Origin: Eledone cirrhosa | Taxonomy: Eukaryota | NCBI GenBank assembly: GCA_964016885.1 | Contig: CAXHJY010000967.1 | Coordinates: forward strand, 135,354-199,353 | DNA length: 64,000 bases | Reading direction: 5' to 3' | In this document: positions 2,344 through 58,317 of the stretch, one piece after another | Position numbering within the stretch: the stretch's first letter is position 1 | How the letters are laid out: the number at the start of each line of letters is the position of its first letter | Made by a program: the position numbers and the translations under genes | The notes under the pieces: model-generated | The model's database searches: none | What the model was told of the DNA's origin: nothing | What the model saw: the letters and a program-made list of their open reading frames with translations, nothing else

Positions 2344-4013
2344 AAAGTTAATATATATTTCAGAAATTTAGCAAAGACAAATATAATTTTGTTGCAGCCA
2401 CTATTATAGAATTAAGCCAGCCAACAATGGAACAACACTCAAAGGTTTGCAAAATAAAAAAAACATTTGAAGAAACAAATAAAAATAAATAAATAGATAA
2501 ATAAATAGCATACTTTAGTCAACAGTGGTACCTGACAATTTGAAAAAGCAGCAAGGTATTTGTATATGTGTAAGTTGAAACTTTGAAGCAATGACAGTAA
2601 AGTTTATTAGCGAAACAAGATATTCAGAACACATCAACTGAGAGGCTTTAAAGAATAAAAAAAAAAATAACAAGCCTATAAAGAATGAGAAACATTTAAT
2701 ATGAATTCTCTCTTCCAAAATCCAATAGTGTATCATTTTTGAAAGGTTGGTTTCAAGTATCTTAGGGCACAATACTTTGCAGGTATACAAAAAGAAGTCA
2801 GTTGAAGAAGTGAATTACACTGACTGAAGAAGCTGACTGATTGTAAGAAGTGTTATAGATGACATGACATTCTAGTAAATAAAACATATTTCAGAATAGC
2901 ATCAAGGACAGCTAGAAACAAGAACAACAAACATCAGCAAATATGTTCTAATCAATAGTTAAAACAATAATGATATTAAAATAAAAAGATAACTAAGCAA
3001 GTGCCATATAAAAATGGAAGCCACACAACACCTAAGATAACTATACTAAAAATACAAAGATGTTTAGTTTGGGGATTTTCTTTCCTCATATTTATTTTTA
3101 AGAAAGAATCTATGCCAATAGCTGTTTCATTTTTTATACGGCTAGGTCTGCAGTTTCATACAAATAGCCAAGTATGTAGTTTCATACAAATAGCCAAGTA
3201 TGTTTATGTTTTATTTAGTAATCATAACAAAGTTATATCCTATTAAACATTTCTAAATATCTGTAGCATTTCATTGTAAATGACTGCAAGGATAAAAAAT
3301 ATATAACCTGTTAAATATAGTGTATAAAAGAAAAATGATTACAGCAAATAGATTTTATAGGTTAGAAACAAGCTTTTATGAGCTACTGAATGCACTCAAA
3401 GGAAATAAAGAGGGGAAAAAAGACTGCATTATGATAATATGACTATCTTATAAAAACATCACATTAATCACATAATAGATCTACAAATTGTAGACCAATC
3501 TCTTATGACTATAAAGATATAAAAATATAAGTAATGAATAAACCCATTGAAATAAATCTAGAAATGAATTTTCTCATACTGACACCATTCATTACTGGAT
3601 ATAATTTGTTGAGAATTTTTTCAAAGAATGTTTAGACTCTTCAACTTATTTATTATACTATTCTTTACATTGCATTTGTATGATCTTTCTGCTTTTCTAG
3701 TAAATTCAAGGTTAATTGGCCAAGGCAACCCTGTTTTGTTTGACATATATATATGAAGTAAAATGCAAAGTAGACAGGTGTAGATAAGAAATATTAATTA
3801 TAGATACAGTTACTATTGGTATATGTAGTATCAAAACTATTCAAACTATTTATTGACAGATAAGAAATTCTACATCTGTTTATTCCTCTCTAAGCACAGG
3901 CATGGCTGTGTGGTTAAGAAGTTCATTTTAGGACCACACTGGGAGGCACCTTGAGCAAATGCCTTCTACTATAGCTCTGAACAGACCAATGCACACACAC
4001 ACATATATATATG

Positions 4014-4131
4014 TGAAAAATTCGGGACCCCCAACGGCTGAGCTCCTGCCGTTTCAACAGCTAGATCTGAACATTCAGATCTAGCTGTTGAAATAGCAGA
4101 AGCTCAGCCGTTGGGGGTCCCGAATTTTTCA
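4014..4131. repeat. Fold-back palindrome, 58-bp arms with a 2-nt spacer
   Basis: tgaaaaattcgggacccccaacggctgagct...ctagatctgaa-ca-ttcagatctag...gggggtcccgaatttttca, with 3 mismatches. Confidence 0.95.
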
Positions 4132-5063
4132 TATTACCCACTTTACTACCCCAAGTATCGAGTACTCTGTTTAATATAGAAATGGCTTTTACAGGACTAG
4201 AACTGTTTCATTCAAAAGAAATCATCATGATGTTTACAATCTACTAATGTATTGAGTACCTTACTAACTGTGGTTACCTCCAATTGTACCCGACACACAC
4301 ACATACATATATAAATGTCTGTTTCAGTATTAACTGAATTTAGTTGTTCTTGTTTTACTAATGTTAATTGAAATATATCTCACTCCTTAAAGCCAACAAA
4401 TAACCCTGTCTAACTTCCACTGCTATATGATTATAATAAGAAGTCTATAATAAGATGTGCCTCACCCACATGTATCAACATTCACATGTTTTCACTTACT
4501 GCTTCAAAGATTTGAGATCTTGTAACATGTAATTTATATGAATTTGTTACTAACATTGCTGTCAGAAACATTGTAGTTTAGCACAGCCAGGCTACAAAAT
4601 TACAAAAGTGACACCTCTGAAAGATTAAAACACTTTCATGTATAGATTTCTTAAATTCTTTTTCCACTTAAACACTTGACTTTATAACTATCGCTACCAT
4701 AAATGAAATGATAGTTAGTGTATACATTTATGTATGTATCCACTCAAGCATAATTAAAAATTTTGTACTTTATAGTTTGTCTATACTAATGTCATTGTGT
4801 ATATATATGTATGTTTTAGTATTAGCACTTAACATCCTGTAATGGTTAAACAGAAAATATCTAACAGGTTTATCAATTCAAATGTTAATATTATCTTTAC
4901 TACTGAACAGATCGTTGTGAAAATTTGCTGTATAAGAGTAAAGATTACAATTGTTAATGTGATGCAGTTGTAGTGCTGTTTTATACTTTTCAAGAATGTC
5001 TTGCTAATGCAGTTTTATGTAGGGCAGGACATTAACTCAAATTAGTAATTATTATATTACTTA

Positions 5064-11345: not shown

Positions 11346-13608
11346 TCATCATCATCATCAACGTTTAACGTCCGTGTTCCACGCTTGCATGGGTTTGGAC
11401 GGGGGTAGTCCACTTGAGGCAAGAGTGATTGTCTTGCTCGCATAGGACTGTCTGGCAGGTTTTCTACAGTTGGATGCCCTTCCTAACACCAACCACATTT
11501 ACAGTGTGGGTCTGGGAGGTTTTTACCGTGTTGCCTACACGGCCACATTACAGCGTGGACTGTGTGTTTTTTTGTCGTGGCACCTACACGACCTCATTTG
11601 TTTTGGCCTGGATGGTGTGGCACCAACATAACTTTACATAGAACGGGGTGGTGTGGATGGGGTGGTGGTGGTGGTGGGACGGGGGGGGGGTATTTTGTTA
11701 GAGATGCCTACTGGCTGTAGTAGGTTTTACTATGTATTTAGGTAAGGCGGGTCTTCTCTGTTACTGAGTACCGCCAAAGGTCTCGGTCCAGTGACATTGT
11801 CTTGGAGAGGTGTAAGTGTGTGAGGTCGGAGTTTATCAGCTCGTCCCAGGTTTTTCTAGGTCTGCCTATTCCGTGGCTACCGTCTATCTTTATTGCCCTG
11901 CACTTTGTTATACAGCTATCGACTTTCATGCGCATCACGTGTCCATACCAACGTAGCCTTCTCTCGAGTAAACAACATCTGATCCCTCTTATTTCTAATT
12001 TTTTCCTTAGTTCGTTTATGCTTTGCCGTTCACGTATATTACTGTTACACATCCAGCGGAGCATGCAAGCTTCGTTCCTCTCTAGTCTGCGTATATCTTC
12101 TGCACACAATGCCCAGGTCTCACTGCCATGCAACATTGCTGTTCGTATGCAGGCATCGTACAACCTGCCTTTCATTTTTAGGGAGAACCCTTTAGCAGCT
12201 AATAGTGGTATAAGCTCTCTGAACTTTTTCCAACCAGTTCTGACTCTAGCTACTGTACTTTCAGAGCACCCTCCCCCACTGCTGATTTTATCACCCAGGT
12301 AACGGAAGCTGTCCACTATTTCTATAGAACCCTCTGCGCAATTGAAAGAGCTAGTATTTTGTGGGCACTTGCTGCTACTTACTGCACCAGAGCACCGGCC
12401 ACATGTAAAATCTATGTTCTTAGTTAGCTTACCTGTGATCCCACTACATCTTTTATGCACCCATACTTTGCATTTAGGACATAAAATGGAGTTTCTACCT
12501 ACGCCTTTCCTACACACCGAGCACGACCATTTCCCAGAAGGGACCGCTGCCTTATTTTCTTTCCTACAAACTAGAACTTTAGTCTTAGCCAGGTTAATTT
12601 TAAGTCCTTTTGATTCTAGGCCGTGCTTCCATGTTTGGAATTTCTTCTTTAGCTCGGCCATTGATTCCGCTATGAGTGTCAGGTCGTCTGCGTATAGGAG
12701 TTCCCATGGGCAGCCGGTCTTGAACTCCTCTGTTATAGCCTGAAGGGCAATAATAAATAGTAGGGGGCTGAGAACAGAGCCCTGATGGACGCCAACTTTT
12801 ACGCTAAACTCTTCACTATATTCGTTGTTAATTCTAACCTTGCTGACTGTTTCTTTATACATGGCTTGTATAGCTCTCACAAGCCATTCGTCAACGCCTA
12901 GTTTTCTAAGAGCCCACCAGATAATGGAGCGGGGGACTCTGTCGAAGGCTTTCTCCAAGTCGACAAAAGCTAAGTAGAGGGGTTTACCTTTAGCTAGGTA
13001 CTTCTCCTGTAGTTGTCGTACAATGAAAAGAGCGTCTGTGGTACTTTTGCCTGACACAAACCCGAACTGCATTTCATCTAGGTGAATTCTCTCTCTGATT
13101 AGTTGTGCTATTACTTTTTCCGTGACCTTCATGACCTGGTCGGTTAAATTAATGCCTCTATAGTTACTCCTATCTAGGGTGTCTCCTTTACCCTTATAAC
13201 AGTTAACGATGATGCTGCTATGCCAGTCCTTCGGAACAACCCCATTCTGTACGACTTGGTTAACTATGCGGGTGACCATGGTGTGTCCCACCGTGCCAGA
13301 TGCCTTCAGCATCTCAGCAACTATTTCCGAAGGCCCAGCCGCCTTACCCGTCTTCATATCCTTGATTGCCTTACTTATTATACTCCCCTCGACTAACACT
13401 GCTGGTCCCTCTATTGGGTCGATATGGGGGAGACTGTCTTTCTCCCATTTATTCTCCTCATTTAGTAGCCTTTCATAGAGACACTTCCAAGCTACCTTCT
13501 TATCAGCGTCGGTGATGGCAAGTATGCCGTCATCGTTAAGTACACACTTCTCCCCGACAATATCACGGTTTTCCTTGACGCATTGCCTAGCAATCCTGAA
13601 ACACCAAT
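11346..13608 (-). mobile_element. RTE-clade non-LTR retrotransposon, 5'-truncated (endonuclease missing), with 3'UTR and (GAT)n tail
   Basis: Contains an uninterrupted RT ORF. The 3'UTR ends in ...GGACGTTAAACGTT-(GAT)n, a terminus shared with many shorter copies in the window. Confidence 0.92.
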
Positions 13609-13615
13609 GAGACAA
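11738..13615 (-). CDS. RTE-type reverse transcriptase (625 aa, N-terminally truncated) with an internal PHD finger
   Basis: Motifs KAAGP, NYRGI, QFGF, FVDLEKAFD, GVHQGSVLSP, LYADD, FRYLG and RRLRWYGHV. A C4HC3 finger sits between KTKVL and FRYLG. Confidence 0.9.
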   Translation of the reverse strand: MSHWCFRIARQCVKENRDIVGEKCVLNDDGILAITDADKKVAWKCLYERLLNEENKWEKDSLPHIDPIEGPAVLVEGSIISKAIKDMKTGKAAGPSEIVAEMLKASGTVGHTMVTRIVNQVVQNGVVPKDWHSSIIVNCYKGKGDTLDRSNYRGINLTDQVMKVTEKVIAQLIRERIHLDEMQFGFVSGKSTTDALFIVRQLQEKYLAKGKPLYLAFVDLEKAFDRVPRSIIWWALRKLGVDEWLVRAIQAMYKETVSKVRINNEYSEEFSVKVGVHQGSVLSPLLFIIALQAITEEFKTGCPWELLYADDLTLIAESMAELKKKFQTWKHGLESKGLKINLAKTKVLVCRKENKAAVPSGKWSCSVCRKGVGRNSILCPKCKVWVHKRCSGITGKLTKNIDFTCGRCSGAVSSSKCPQNTSSFNCAEGSIEIVDSFRYLGDKISSGGGCSESTVARVRTGWKKFRELIPLLAAKGFSLKMKGRLYDACIRTAMLHGSETWALCAEDIRRLERNEACMLRWMCNSNIRERQSINELRKKLEIRGIRCCLLERRLRWYGHVMRMKVDSCITKCRAIKIDGSHGIGRPRKTWDELINSDLTHLHLSKTMSLDRDLWRYSVTEKTRLT

Positions 13616-13845
13616 ATGTGATAGGAGAAATTCAAATAAATGATAATGCTATCAATGATCACAATGTAGAAAAAGAAAATGCGTCACCAGCGTGATCAAG
13701 GATAAAATTTAGTGAACAATTTATAGACAGAACACTTTTCATGAAGAGTTGAGGGGAGGATAAATTAATTAATCAGATTCTTAAAACTTTGTTGCAGCTG
13801 GCAATAAACTTAACCTACTTATACCTGGTCCTCACCATATAAATA

Positions 13846-16560: not shown

Positions 16561-16839
16561 CTGGTAAAGAAAAAATAGAGACAGCATCTTTCCATCATTC
16601 TAAACATACTCAGCACTTTAATGTAACCTCAGAAATTGCATTACATGAAGCTGTGCAGTATTTCAGCCAATCAGAAAAAAAGAAAATTTCATCTGATAGG
16701 CATCATGTGATGTAGTGAAAACAGGGACAAAGCTGTGTTTACATTTATAATTATATAGTGAGAAACAATTGCAATACTGAATTCTCAAATGAAGTCGGAT
16801 TATATATGCACGTATATATACATATGTATATTTTTATAT

Positions 16840-21132
<4,293 letters not shown>

Positions 21133-21627
21133 AAATTTTAAAATGGATTGAGATTACTTTTTCAATACTTTCTGAGGCTAATGAAATGTACCAAAAACCA
21201 TACATTAATATACTGAGTCAACTTTTCACTTAATACTTAATATTCTGATGCAAGTTAATAAATAGAGGGAACATTAATTATTCCGCCAAATTTTGATCTG
21301 CCAACAAAAAGGTAGAATGGCAATATTGGTATGATTAATTGAGATTAATTTGAAAAGTATGTTGTTGTTTTTCTTTCCTATAATGGAAACATTCTACATT
21401 TCAAGTTATTTTACACTTGGTTATAAATATGAGATTGGTAAAACATTAAATCTTTTTCACAATTAATATATAATTAATTTATTAAAGTATAATGATCTTA
21501 AACAAACTCGGAAACACAAAACTTGCCCTGCAATTGGGTGGAATTTAACTGGAAGGCAGAAACTGGAAACACCTTGAAATAAATATGAACAAGAGAAAAG
21601 GTAAGAAAAAGGGAAGGTGGCACTTAC

Positions 21628-26330: not shown

Positions 26331-28318
26331 ATCAACATAGTGTATACATTAAAAAAAGAAGATCTGGTGATAGCTAAGAAGATTAGGTCAAAAATATAAA
26401 GTACTGCAATATATGCAACATTTTTTAAAAATTTTCAGTAGATATTTGACTTTGGAAAAAGATTGTACAACAATATCCTATAGATGTTTGAAGTCGAGCT
26501 AAATGTTACTAATGTGTATAAAAGATGAAAATTATATGAAATATAATAGACTCTCAGATTGACACGACTAACAATAAATGGACACTTTAAGTACATTAAC
26601 TCTTTTGATACCAAACCACCTCTCTTTCAATGATACAAAACTGTTTGTTTTAAAGTATTTATATTTATCTCAAAACCTCCAATCATGATTTTATGCAAGA
26701 ACCTTTAAGTTATATTCCAAACAACAGAAAGTTAATTGTATTACTAAATTCCTCAAAATTGTAGATTATTTTCAAAGGGACTTGAAAATCATAGGCAGTG
26801 TCTTTCATTAGAAATATGATGAGATAAGAGTTCAATTGTAGCTGAAAGTTTGATTTTATGGTTTGTTTGATGAGGTAGATAATCTTGTCTCTTGCAAGAT
26901 TAAATCAACAATGTGGTGAACCAACAATATTTCTCTCAGAGAAAATGTTTGTAGTGACTAAAAGAACTTTAGGGACTTTTTGAGTAATAGTAACAGATTC
27001 TTTCTGATCATAAAACAATGTTTATAGTATCAGAAGTGTGATGTCAAATGGCAGTAAGATATGACTACAAAAGATAGATTATTAATTGCTGTTGAGGAAT
27101 CGGTTGAATATAATTTTCTGAGTGTAGGAAGAGAAGCTGCATGGTTTAGTGGTTAGGGTGTTCAGCTTATGGTCATAAGGTCATGAGTTTGAGTCCTTGA
27201 GCAAAACACTATCCACATTACTCTAGTTAACTCAGGTGATTGAAAGGGCCAACCTTCACAGACTGCAGCATGCTGAATGTCAGTCACGTGTACATTAATC
27301 TGATGAGCAGGTTGTTCTGTTGATCAACCAGTGGAAGACTCATTGTAAGAGAGGTCCAACAACACAGAAAGACAGACTGAGTAATAGATAAGTTAGGAAA
27401 AAATATATGAGAGTGAAGCAAATTTGATGTTTTGGAACAGTGATACGTATGGATTAATATGGATTAATACATGCTAAAAAATGGAGGATGAACTAGTCCT
27501 ACTTTTTTCTGTCTCTAGGGGCTTATATGCCCAACTTATTAAACTGATTTTCATAGTTGAAAAACGTGTTGAAGTCATTAACTCTAAGTTGACCTAATAT
27601 TCAAAAATTTGTAACTCACTCATTGGTTCTAAAAATAGATGGTTTATTTACATTTGTGGCTGATTGAAAAGCTTAAAAAAGAGAAAGGTGTGGCCACCTC
27701 ACTTTGGTGTAATGGAAGCACAGCTACATGGCATACAGCAGGTATGAGTTTGAGTCATACAGGTGACACTGTTCATTTTTTTCATCTCCCAGGGCTTACA
27801 CGCCCAATTTATTAGACTGTTTTCCATAGTCTAAAAGTGTGTGTTGAAGCTGTTAACTCTGAGTTAACTTAATATTCAAATATCTGATTTTCTCCCTAAG
27901 GATCAACCCATCCTACCCATGCTAGTATGGAAGATGGATGTTAAATGACAATGATGATGATATATATATGTATATATATATATATATGATGTGTGTGTGT
28001 ATATATATATGTATATATATATTATGTTGGTACCATAAAACATCCAGCCCACACTGTAAAGTGGTTGTGTAGGTGTCACGTAAAAGCACCCAGCCCACAC
28101 TGTCAATGTGGTGCGCGTTAGGAAGGGCATCCAGCTGTAGAAAACCAGCCAGAAAAGTCCTATATGAGCGAGAGATGGTCACCCAACCCAACTTGCCTCT
28201 AAATGGGACAAACCTGTCTAACCCATGCTAACGTGGAAGACAGATGTTAAATGATGATATATATATATATATATATTAATTCAAAATATTAATAAATATA
28301 GACATTCACGTAATCAAA

Positions 28319-28389
28319 ATATATTTTATTATATATATTTCGGAGGTACTGTGCTTTTTTTCAGTACGTCCTCATCAGATAAAATATAT
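28319..28389 (-). ncRNA. Minimal type-I hammerhead ribozyme, complete core (Penelope/retrozyme type)
   Basis: Minus strand reads atatattttat-CTGATGA-ggacgtactg(aaaaaaagca)cagtacctcc-GAAA-tatata-TA-ataaaatatat. This gives an 11-bp stem I, a stem II with 9 of 10 pairs, and a 2-bp stem III with a palindromic AUAU loop; the cleavage triplet is AUA. Confidence 0.8.
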
Positions 28390-29141
28390 AAATTGATGTA
28401 CTGAAAAAACAGGACAGTACCTCCGACATATATCATCATCATCATCATTTCATTTTACGTCCGCTTTTTCCCTGCTTGCAAGGGTGGGGCGGGAACTGAT
28501 TGTGGCTTGATTTCTACAGCTTGATGCCCTTCCTAACACCAACCTCATTTACAGTGAGTGCTGGGTGTTTTTTGCCATGGCACCTGCACGATCACTTTGC
28601 AGTAGAATGATATGGACCCCAGTCCCTATCATCTCATTTCTACAGCTGAGTAAACTGGAGCAATGTGAAATAAAGTGTCTTGCTCAAGGAAACAACACAT
28701 CACCCGGTCTGAGAATTAAACTCACAACCTTTCGATTGCAAGGCCAATGCTCTAACCACTAAGCCATGTGCCTCCATTGTCTATATTTATTAATATTTTG
28801 AATTAATATTAATAACTCAAGAAAACTTTTTTGTTGAGTGCTTCTAATCTATTGTAAAACTATATTCATTGATTAATCAATGAACCTTGTTTAACTTTTG
28901 GTTATATATATATAATGAGAGGTACACACATATGTGCATACATACATACACATGTATATATACACATATACTTTTTCACAAGTATGTGAGATTGTGTGTT
29001 GTCGACCTTAACCAGTGTTGCTCTATGATTATGAGAGACAAGATAATCGAAGTAATTAAATTGAATCGATATCAGAGCTATGTAACAATTATAAAGTAAG
29101 AAGAAATAGTAGACACAGATATATACCTATTCTTTCTTCAG

Positions 29142-29382
29142 AAATCCTAGTCATTTAGAACATTTAGGGTACATAATTCTTGTTAGTGTCATAGGTAACA
29201 TGTGGAGAGTCAGGAGTTAAAAAGATGTTCTGCTTAAAAGAACACAATTACAGGCAGCACTGGTTGAAAGTGTGTGCTGCCTGTAATTGTGTTCTTTTAA
29301 GCAGAACATCTTTTTAACTCCTGACTCTCCACATGTTACCTATGACACTAACAACAATTATGTACCCTAATGACTAGGATTT
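29142..29382. repeat. Fold-back palindrome, arms 119 and 109 nt with a 13-nt spacer
   Basis: Arms 29142-29260 and 29274-29382 are reverse complements apart from about 1 substitution and a 10-nt indel. Confidence 0.95.
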
Positions 29383-29407
29383 TAGTAACATGTTTCGACA
29401 TTCCCTA

Positions 29408-29454
29408 TGCTCCGATGATTCCAAACTTCCCTCTGGAAGAAACAATTGTCAGCA
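29408..29454 (+). ncRNA. Minimal type-I hammerhead ribozyme motif with a U4C core change
   Basis: Reads tgct-CCGATGA-ttcca(aacttccctc)tggaa-GAAA-caattg-TC-agca. Stems I, II and III all pair, loop III is palindromic AAUU and the cleavage triplet is GUC. One core substitution. Confidence 0.6.
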
Positions 29455-29494
29455 AATAAATGTTCTAAACTAAAATTTGATCGTTTTAACACTT

Positions 29495-29533
<39 letters not shown>

Positions 29534-30037: not shown

Positions 30038-30081
<44 letters not shown>

Positions 30082-30090
30082 CTTTCAATC

Positions 30091-30330
30091 CATTGAGTGT
30101 TCTGTGATTGCCTCAAAACAAATCAAATTGTACATGCTATATATATATATAGATAGATATCTTTCTTTATTTGCCACAGGGGCGTACAAAAATGGGACAT
30201 TACAAGACGTGATGGCGTCTTGTAATGTCACATTTTTGTATACCCCTGTGGCAAATAAAGAAAGATATCTATCTATATATATAGCAAGTACAATTTGATT
30301 TGTTTTGAAGCAATCACAGAACACTCAATG
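30091..30330. repeat. Fold-back palindrome, ~115-119-nt arms with a 6-nt spacer
   Basis: cattgagtgttctgtg...tacaagacg-tgatgg-cgtcttgta...cacagaacactcaatg, with about 5 mismatches plus a TA-tract length difference. Confidence 0.95.
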
Positions 30331-30332
30331 TT

Positions 30333-30363
<31 letters not shown>

Positions 30364-32419: not shown

Positions 32420-33430
32420 GCCAGCCCACACTGTAAAATGATCGTGATGGAGACACAACAAAAAGTGCACAGCTCACACTGTTAGGTGGTTGTGTAGCAC
32501 AACAAAAAGCACCCAGTACTCACTGTAAATGTGGTTAGTATCAGCCATAGAAAAGAAGCCAAAATCGGTTCTGTATGAGCAAAACATGGTCGTCCGACCC
32601 CAACTTGCCTCATATAGGACAACCCGTCTAACTCATGCTAGCTTGGAAAATGAACGTTAAACGGTGATGATGATATATATGTCATATCATCATCATTATT
32701 TAATACCTGTTTTCCATCTAGCAAGAGTTTTGCTATACATATAGACTGGCAATATGCAATACTGGACTCACCTACCAGCATAAAAACATTACCTTGTCAA
32801 ATTCCACTACATCTATCATAGATATGACATATTTTCTTACCTCTTCTTTCCCTGCCACACCCATCATATGCCCATGGCAATACACTTGTTATCCTCCACA
32901 CATATTGTCCCTTACCAGTGACATACTTCCTTCCTCACACTCCCCATTCAGTAGGGAGGGTTTTTCAGTTGAGTCAATAATCAGCAACCTCCCTAGTACT
33001 GGTGTCACAATAAAATGCATCCATTACACTCTGTAAAGTGGTTGGTGTTAGGGAAGGCTTCCAGCCATAGAATCCATGCCAAAGAGTTGAGAAGATCCTT
33101 CTGTCGTGAGTCATGACATCACTAGAGAGGTTGCCGTGTCATGAATATTGACACAGGAACCTCTCTAGTGCTGGTGACACAAAAATGTACCCAATACACC
33201 CTAGAAGATGATTGGTGATAGGAAAGGCATCCAACTAAAGAAGCCATGCAAAAAATGGGTTGAGAAGTCTTGAGGCACATCAATGACATGACAACCTCCC
33301 TAGTGCTGGTACCAAAATGAAATACAATTGGTGTACTCAGTCCATATGAGAGGTCAATAGCTCTGATGAAGTACTGACATGGTGTGTGACAACCCATCCA
33401 ACCCTTGCTAGAAGGAAAAATGATGAAGAT
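32420..33430. repeat. Cluster of RTE-3'UTR-related short repeats (similar pieces near 7345-7800, 8410-8740, 27905-28258, 28434-28600, 39200-39800 and 46140-46500)
   Basis: The motifs cactgtaaagtggttgg, ggaagggcatccagc and acccatgctagcatggaa recur, with (GAT)n tails shared with the RTE 3'UTR. Confidence 0.65.
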
Positions 33431-56300: not shown

Positions 56301-57730
56301 TTAATGGAGGACTATAATAAACAGGAGAGGGCTGTGCACTCAGTCTTGATGGACATCTATTTGTATGCTAAATCTTGCTGTACTCATTGTTAACTCACAT
56401 CTTGCTAACTGCACTCCTGCAAATGGCTTATACAGCCCTCACAAGTATTCACCAGATTACAGAAAATGGAATTTTAAAAAAGGCCTTTTCCAGACCAACA
56501 AATGCTATATATTCTTAGCTAAGTACTTCTCTTGCAGTTGCCTCACTAGGAAATTGGAAAGAGTCAATTCTGAAAAGGATTTTAAAAACTTAGATGTATT
56601 GTTGTCTGATGAGAAGAAGGAAATATTCAAATTTCTGGCAATGTTCTTTATTGATGAAAGAATAAATAGGAATTACTGAAATATATGAAATTATAATTAA
56701 CCTTTTCATGACCATATTTTTAATAAAAGACAGTACCTGTGATGTTCAAATCACCTTGAAAACAATCAAGAATTTGGAGGGATTTAATAAAATAACTAAC
56801 ATTTTTGTTATTAAGCTAATGTTTGGAGCATAATTTAACAAAGGTTCTTACATAAAACTACAATGGAAGGTGTTTTTAGATAATATAGCCACATTAAAAT
56901 AAAGTATTTTATATCAGAGAACCAGGGATGGTTTCAGGTGGGTTGGCATCAAAAGAGTTAAAATCATCATCATCGTTTTTATGTCTGCTTTTCCACGTTT
57001 GCATGGGTTGGACTGGTCCTTCTCAGCACAGCATCTCTCCATGAATTGGCATTTTTTTTTTATTCTGAAGAATATTGTTTAATTTTACTTTATTCCTCAT
57101 CAATATATCTTTCTTTGGGATTCTTAACAGTGTTGGAAGCTGTTTAAATGATATATTTAACATCTGAATTAAAAGGATTTGATATTTTATTGAAAGTGAT
57201 GTTGTAACTTTGTTGATGTATGTAATGTTTAAAGTTGTTCTAGTTACCATATTTGATGACATGTAGGAACCTAGGCATTTCAGCAGGGAATACTGATACA
57301 TCAACTTCACATATAACACCTGGTTGATATTTTTTAGACATTTTCTTTTAAAGGAGGTCTTATAAGCCGTCAAATAATGATAATTCTGCATTATGAACAT
57401 TCCAGTAATGTACTGGGTAATTGCTGGCCTTGTGCCTAAAGTAGAAACAATTATGAACATTAGAGTTCATAGTTATCCTATATAGATAAAGCTATTAAGT
57501 TCTTTTTAGATAGAAGACTGGCAGTGTGTGGCTGGTAAAATTATTAAAATAGAGGATTTTAAGTGATCTTAGGAATTGATTTTAAAAGAACAGCTTTTAT
57601 TACGCCAGTGGACTGTTAGTGTGGTCTGATTTATGAAATATAAGCATGTCTCCTTAGCAACATCAGGAAAGCTGATTAAAACACATTGAAACTATCGATA
57701 ACGGTTGCTAAATGAAATATTCAGAAGAAA

Positions 57731-58317
57731 TAATTGTTTCTACTTTTGGCACAAGACCAGCAATTACCCAGTACATTACTGGTACTTTATTTTATCGACC
57801 CCATAAGGATGAAAGGCAAAGTTAACCTCTGCAGGATTTGAACTCAGAATGGCAAGGGCCGTAACTCTATGCGTCAAAGCATGGCGTCCGACCCTCTACT
57901 GATACTTCCAATCCATTCAGAAGAAATAATTATTTCTACTTTTGGCACAAGGCCAGCAATCACCAGTGTATTACTGGTGCTTTATTTTATCGACCCCGTA
58001 AGGATGAAAGGTAAAGTTAACCTCGACGGGATTTGAACTCAGACCATAAAGGGACGTAACTATGCTAGAAAGCATGACGTCCAACCCTCTACCGATACTG
58101 CCAATTCACCGCCCCTCGCGTCAAAGAAATAATTGTTTCTACTTTAGGCACAAGGCCAGCAATTACCCAGTGCATTACTGGTACTTTATTTTATCGACCC
58201 CGTAAGGATGAAAGGCAAAGTCAACCTCGGCGGGATTTGAACTCAGACCATAAAGGGACGTAACTATGCTGGAAAGCATGGCGTCCGACCCTCTACCGAT
58301 ACTGCCAATCTACCGCC
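57731..58317 (-). mobile_element. Three tandem SINE family 1 copies on the opposite strand
   Basis: Copies at about 57731, 57927 and 58130. Confidence 0.9.

Follow-up and report, generated by a model that had tools for sequence, protein, structure and literature searches.

The closest described setting for the locus analysed here is that of the Penelope-like retroelements (PLEs). In these elements adjacent inverted copies truncated at their 5' ends and a bias for (TA)n are known (PMC8557442), and head-to-head palindromes have been interpreted as products of self-priming (PMC3846280). The PLE ribozyme is reported to be assisted by protein and to be dispensable in vitro, and both strands are nicked and extended (PMC11167929). 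In these elements the hammerhead could serve in RNA processing or might simply be carried along as a passenger, depending on the reading (PMC8557442, PMC11167929). A change of U to C at position 4 of the hammerhead core (U4C) has been described in a viroid variant, which showed lower activity in vitro and was still infectious (Ambros and Flores 1998, cited in PMC3088659). Using comparisons with sequencing runs, descriptor scans and fold predictions, we analysed a 64-kb stretch of Eledone cirrhosa DNA (hereafter the window), in which a 355-bp fragment belonging to a multi-copy repeat is quite probably the 3' end of a Penelope-like element, lying head-to-head with a shorter inverted copy of itself and carrying a predicted hammerhead with C at core position 4.

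The arms of the hairpin that had been described as near-perfect at 29142-29382 indeed pair closely: 29142-29260 and 29274-29382 form 109 paired positions with one mismatch around a 13-nt loop, the left arm being longer by 10 bases, and the fold of the region including hairpin and ribozyme motif has a z-score of -25 relative to 100 shuffles. Arm pairing and family contigs identify the left arm together with the "loop" (29142..29273, minus strand) as an inverted copy of an upstream, non-coding part of the element; its end falls 25-30 nt short of the ribozyme, and it retains 10 nt that are absent from the other arm. The direct copy (29274..29496, plus strand), which is represented in 934 contigs of the run X1, is a 5'-truncated version of the 3' end of the repeat comprising the right arm, the ribozyme and a 3' tail. 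The longest piece of the family covers 29274-29493, with loose letters preceding 29274, and the 3' boundary at 29496 was placed by the adjoining TA tract. In 23 contigs the loose letters that precede 29274 finish, with one mismatch, on the reverse complement of 29261..29273 (minus strand), which is the loop. The loop can therefore be assigned to the inverted copy; it is the head-to-head junction and consists of element sequence rather than host DNA.

The (TA)n tract noted earlier on the 3' side of the ribozyme occupies 29497-29529, starting 42 nt past the ribozyme, and is likely to be the insertion target or a tail; TA is present on the right flank only, and no target-site duplication was found beyond it at the locus. 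The inverted and direct copies terminate 114 nt apart, as compared with the tail difference of 30-40 bp in EN+ Penelope-like elements, which insert at AT-rich or (TA)n targets with or without a short target-site duplication. Neither copy end coincides with the predicted cut site, and the left end lies away from the 3' end of the element and does not adjoin TA. As the arms differ by one indel and one substitution, a read chimera at the junction is disfavoured; none of the contigs listed for the four runs compared with 29245-29496 bridges the hairpin junction. All three frames of both copies contain stops, and no second copy of the element was found within the window.

Around the locus the window consists of AT-rich animal DNA that contains microsatellites and pieces of LINEs. 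At 11738-13648 (minus strand) a 636-codon open frame encodes a LINE reverse transcriptase that includes a PHD-like finger (best matches 57% identical); decayed relatives lie near 48.6 and 55-56 kb, and a different LINE lies near 51-54 kb. A TA-rich tandem repeat of ~4 kb, with GC as low as 8%, extends from about 16800 to 21200. Long hairpins are common in the window, with further inverted repeats at 30049-30362, 4011-4134, 33117-33173 and 57402-57977, and two descriptor scans recovered no hammerhead inside any of these four.

The preliminary description had also placed a hammerhead with a CCGAUGA core 25 nt after the hairpin, and this is upheld by a descriptor scan and by shuffled controls. 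The type I fold spans 29408..29454 on the plus strand, with the C at core position 4 located at 29413. Stem I is formed by 29408-29411 and 29451-29454, followed by the core CCGAUGA (29412-29418), stem II (29419-29438), GAAA (29439-29442) and a stem III that is an 8-nt palindrome, with the predicted cut at 29450/29451; fold prediction adds a putative distal stem I pairing 29397-29402 with 29459-29464 (29397..29464, plus strand). Three stems surround the core and stem I is open, as in the canonical type I layout. The canonical letters C3, G5, A6, G8, A9, G12, A13, A14, A15.1-U16.1 and H17 are all present, and among the 40 of 88 difference rows listed there is none at these core letters. Position 4 is C rather than the canonical U, both here and as the family majority, and the closing pair is U10.1-A11.1 instead of G10.1-C11.1; closing pairs other than the latter occur in PLE motifs (PMC4209133, PMC8557442). 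Stem II has 7 bp in the family, and a G>A change at 29424 breaks its sixth pair in the present copy. The one-mismatch descriptor gave two matches in the window and missed a canonical motif at 28.3 kb that a later scan found. In 40 shuffled windows there were 0.175 loose descriptor matches per window and none at the stem lengths of the present motif, a stricter cut-off that was chosen with the present match already known. Rfam returned 27 matches without a hammerhead among them, and likewise missed the canonical motif at 28378 (minus strand).

Nine sequencing runs were listed, six of them containing matching sequence and none on record as RNA. To place the element in a family, 29245-29496 was compared at 80% likeness with four of the nine, X1, X4, X6 and X7, which derive from three organisms (A, B and C). 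Matches were obtained with 934 contigs of X1, nine of X4, one of X6 and 698 reads of X7, which supports the proposed insertion of a repeat family. The summed depth in X1 rises from ~20,000 at 29299-29325 to 143,000 at 29452-29460, against a depth of 7-18 for the longest pieces; summed depth is not copy number, as overlapping short contigs inflate it, and we infer hundreds to thousands of copies. The 3'-weighted gradient fits 5' truncation, and subfamilies with different upstream sequence may contribute part of it. One 270-nt contig of X1 covers 29274-29493, and hence the arm and the ribozyme belong to one element. Inverted joints were also recovered in other copies, in one X4 contig and in 17 reads of X7 with two starts. 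A further joint, 29394-29432, skips 29395-29431, including the core's first half, and is seen at a depth of 690 in X1 and in one X4 contig with a 20-letter side; if real, it would represent an amplified core-less derivative, and the core would then be unneeded for amplification. Organisms A and B have an inverted junction with similar ends, 29273/29274 to 29390, which may reflect a single old insertion common to both or a derivative that was amplified. Pattern scans elsewhere gave six metagenome matches, none of them homologous, and no viral contigs or prokaryote genomes. Separately, an unrelated metagenome contig (L005:2822-2871) holds an apparent canonical type I hammerhead with a palindromic stem III.

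The variation within the family bears directly on the unusual core letter. Rows caused by one 100-read RAD locus that was placed out of register were excluded. A U at 29413 is found in none of the 40 of 88 difference rows listed for the four runs and three organisms, and these include rows with support far below that of any majority change. No C>T change occurs in the X6 contig, and the only two differences of X4 record 12 are assigned to 29405 and 29424. In loose ends, the core of one diverged type reads CCGACGA (a mix of 11 contigs with an agreement of 0.66) and that of a second reads CGATGA (one RAD locus). C4 is the majority letter of the family, common to its subfamilies and to the three organisms, with U4 possible in a minority. 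The change had been suggested to be either decay after insertion or a variant of the family; it is the latter, and decay fails to account for it given that C is the majority letter in the runs. CpG decay, moreover, turns C into U and not U into C. Elsewhere in the motif, the family has G at 29424 (98%), and the pair 29424/29433 is G-C in the majority; a minor subfamily (X4 record 14; X1 depths of 954 versus 905) has A-U at this pair, and in the RAD locus G-C replaces A-U inside the stem III palindrome. Changes in stem II and in the palindrome are therefore compensatory in diverged subfamilies that keep C4. All eight variable places listed within the motif lie outside its 12 core positions; this does not reach significance (p = 0.075) and leaves the constancy of the core suggestive only.

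The 10 extra bases of the left arm had been reported to match the reverse complement of sequence just 3' of the ribozyme; the match is real and exact over 13 nt, with 29154-29166 being the reverse complement of 29457-29469 (~3e-4 by chance nearby). Self-comparison and family copies show these to be the upstream unit (29154..29166, minus strand), which contains the extra bases, and the downstream unit (29457..29469, plus strand) of a 13-nt direct repeat that is internal to the element. The same 10 bases are present at 29368 in other copies of the family, in one X1 contig for each of two forms and in 55/225 and 36/225 reads of X7, and also in loose ends of X1, X4 and X7. As they are part of a direct repeat flanking the ribozyme, the right arm most likely deleted 10 bases that the left arm kept. 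Template switching, proposed earlier as their source, is unneeded, because other family copies have them at the same place. A longer internal duplication around the 13-nt repeat is weak, with 25 of 2000 shuffles scoring as well. The 3' unit pairs into the distal stem I, for which the 5' unit could compete, and the left copy ends 12 nt beyond the 5' unit. Elsewhere in the direct copy, 29331-29339 and 29385-29393 are exactly complementary, aided by letters seldom seen in other family copies, and may represent a templated mutation cluster.

Rare letters also throw light on the origin of the inverted junction. Both arms carry minority letters at 29298, 29336, 29338 and 29342, where 88-99% of the family depth differs, and they differ from each other at only 1 of 95 places. 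The sharing of four rare letters implies that one arm was copied from the other, that both came from the same rare template, or that they were homogenised; judged from the sequence, copying of one arm from the other is likely. Any fold-back would have taken place on the top strand, as the loop is part of the inverted copy. A cDNA primed at the left flank would have run up the element RNA, stopped 13 nt beyond the point where the right arm now starts, turned back and served as its own template. For the remaining 114 nt with the ribozyme and tail, the source might then be another cDNA, primed at the TA tract; alternatively, the left copy may have lost them later. A simple fold-back of this kind predicts a junction 2 nt shorter than that observed. 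The hairpin would accordingly be a by-product of insertion without function, and it is likely an insertion junction rather than a purpose-built partner of the ribozyme. The locus preserves the geometry of the junction, namely the loop on the inverted copy and the shared rare letters, and is in this respect relevant to the self-priming model.

Two traits of Penelope-type elements are found at the locus: 5' truncation with an adjacent, head-to-head, inverted truncated copy, and a hammerhead, here with a variant core, near the 3' end. The reverse transcriptase plus GIY-YIG ORF of full-length EN+ Penelope-like elements was not found near the repeat: none of 53 frames of at least 55 aa at 24-36 kb matches Pfam, as expected for a 223-nt 3' remnant. 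Membership of the Penelope type appears likely from the two traits above. Of the earlier suggestion of a non-coding insertion that is either Penelope-derived or retrozyme-like, it is the former part that is supported; for the latter there is neither a tandem unit at the locus nor a head-to-tail joint in the 252 nt compared.

Whether the family form is likely to cut was addressed with fold predictions. In the monomer, the core is predicted to pair with the cut-site strand; a state in which the core is open and stems I and II are formed has a probability of 0.002 in the family form, compared with 0.001 when position 4 is U. Between two molecules the palindrome gives an 8-bp duplex of -6.4 kcal/mol, and the hairpin within one molecule (+1.7) is not stable; a duplex that is stable only between molecules is what is expected of PLE hammerheads that act as dimers. 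The misfolded CUGA/UCAG duplex has -3.7 kcal/mol with C4 versus -6.4 kcal/mol with U4, a difference that amounts to only about twofold in the whole fold. On these models, the balance tips slightly towards weak cleavage by the family form, as a dimer via the 8-nt palindrome or with the help of an element protein, and the present copy, given its broken stem II pair, would likely be weaker. Pile-ups of read ends beside the cut site were considered as signs of cleavage and rejected, the five listed out of six all falling on AATT cuts made for a RAD DNA library (X7). We tentatively propose, at somewhat less than an even chance, that Penelope-like families in at least three organisms fixed U4C and still cut as a dimer or with their own protein. 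If true, U4C would tune activity down and weaken the CUGA/UCAG misfold.

The success of a family bearing a core letter that is normally damaging amounts to a natural test of the role of the hammerhead. Cleavage by the family form would mean that the U-turn position naturally tolerates C and that standard searches undercount such ribozymes; failure to cut would mean that the fold is retained for another job. Moreover, since C4 motifs escape CUGANGA descriptors and the one here was missed by Rfam, some elements said to be without a ribozyme may bear variant cores.

Of the alternatives, the one that we regard as a serious minority possibility has the same origin for the locus, with a C4 motif that no longer cuts: the fold would be a signal for protein binding or initiation, or would simply drift, and the family would spread without cleavage. 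The lower in vitro activity of U4C (PMC3088659) agrees with this, as do catalytic mutants that left insertion in vitro unaffected (PMC11167929), the Naiads, which thrive without canonical hammerheads (PMC8557442), the possible core-less derivative within the family and the predicted misfolding of the monomer. Yet the U4C viroid remained infectious (PMC3088659), the dimer palindrome is maintained with a two-sided change in one locus, and the other core letters are without listed variation whereas N7 and stem II vary with compensation, the last of these being a weak point (p = 0.075). It is unlikely, in turn, that the family is a non-autonomous, retrozyme- or SINE-like one of a few hundred bases, which borrows the Penelope protein and may circularise, with the locus as a broken monomer. 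No coding sequence was seen in the copies or in the frames at 24-36 kb, upstream continuation of the family is seen only over 30 loose letters, and retrozymes are described as deriving from Penelope pLTRs and occurring solo (10.64898/2026.07.22.740005). Nevertheless, the locus has no tandem and the 252 nt compared no head-to-tail joint, the head-to-head inversion and the 3'-weighted depth fit truncated Penelope copies, and the word "inverted" is absent from a paper on retrozymes (PMC7229834).

We consider it rather improbable that this was a plain truncated insertion whose inverted arm arose later, through a fold-back duplication at the DNA level, or whose arms were homogenised by conversion. 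The four shared rare letters could be mutations that arose at the locus, and the left end is neither at the 3' end of the element nor beside TA; however, inverted joints are found in other copies, and the left copy has 13 upstream and 10 internal nucleotides that the right arm lacks, so that the right arm as it now stands was not its template. Finally, the motif might be suspected of being a chance resemblance in single-copy DNA, or a canonical hammerhead that has decayed, next to a MITE or microRNA-like hairpin unrelated to it; grounds for this are the lack of a hammerhead among the 27 Rfam matches, where microRNA hairpins are sub-threshold only, and the lack of a second copy in the window. 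This is largely refuted by the large family with arm and ribozyme in one contig, and is extremely improbable: C4 recurs in three organisms, CpG decay would take C4 to U and not the reverse, and Rfam missed the canonical 28.3-kb motif as well. As for the hairpin itself, a MITE or a microRNA precursor was rejected, the repeat being internal and one-sided and all microRNA matches being below the Rfam gathering threshold. The preferred reading thus remains a Penelope-like 3' end with a shorter inverted copy of itself.

A second element in the window, at 28268-28814, has a hammerhead with a canonical core at 28378 (minus strand) and a palindromic stem III, an inverted degenerate copy alongside (28333-28433) and 37-nt inverted ends (28268-28304 and 28778-28814). 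It likely belongs to another Penelope-like family; as had been stated before, the two are unrelated in sequence, with 278 and 775 of 1000 shuffles scoring as well.

Comparison with the described systems shows resemblances of several kinds. The viroid hammerhead with U4C (cited in PMC3088659) has the identical core change; there it is a population variant, whereas here it is found in most copies of a genomic repeat family, and in several organisms. The non-LTR retrozymes (PMC7229834; 10.64898/2026.07.22.740005) share a non-coding nature, a type I hammerhead, low GC and a relationship to Penelope, but are defined by tandem hammerhead units of 150-450 bp and by circular RNA; the present locus has a single motif, with no go-back joint in 252 nt, and longer units are possible elsewhere. 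The minimal hammerheads of metazoan PLEs (PMC4209133) similarly have a short stem I, a long stem II and a palindromic stem III suited to dimers, and are mostly single motifs of truncated copies with neighbours on the opposite strand. They differ in their consensus G10.1-C11.1, as against U-A here, and in having U4 in 56 of 56 aligned motifs, a count biased by a descriptor that fixed the core.

The closest likeness is to PLEs of the Hydra clade, including Penelope-13_HM (PMC8557442, File S2), which have a type I hammerhead near the 3' end and, as compared by eye, an additional base flanking stem II on either side and a near-palindromic stem III of 3-4 bp. They also have a (TA)n neighbour and, as in Penelope-13_HM, an inverted truncated copy at the 5' side (PMC8557442). 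The Hydra clade is defined by RT/EN phylogeny, while the present element, having no ORF, is likened to it by ribozyme layout alone. The octopus Hydra-1_oBim motif differs in sequence from the present one (PMC8557442). Of six short motifs of the present element compared with the supplement of PMC8557442, five gave 0-6 matches, none of those listed being the element, and neither was any of the 5 of 17 places inspected for the sixth. U4 is present in every one of the 34 rows in File S2 (PMC8557442), in contrast to the C4 seen here. In the literature searched we found no family-wide U4C in a retroelement, and published lists of PLE core variants might include one. A family-level C4 in a hammerhead of Penelope-like layout did not turn up, so that the core variant appears to be new, set within an architecture that is itself ordinary for these elements.
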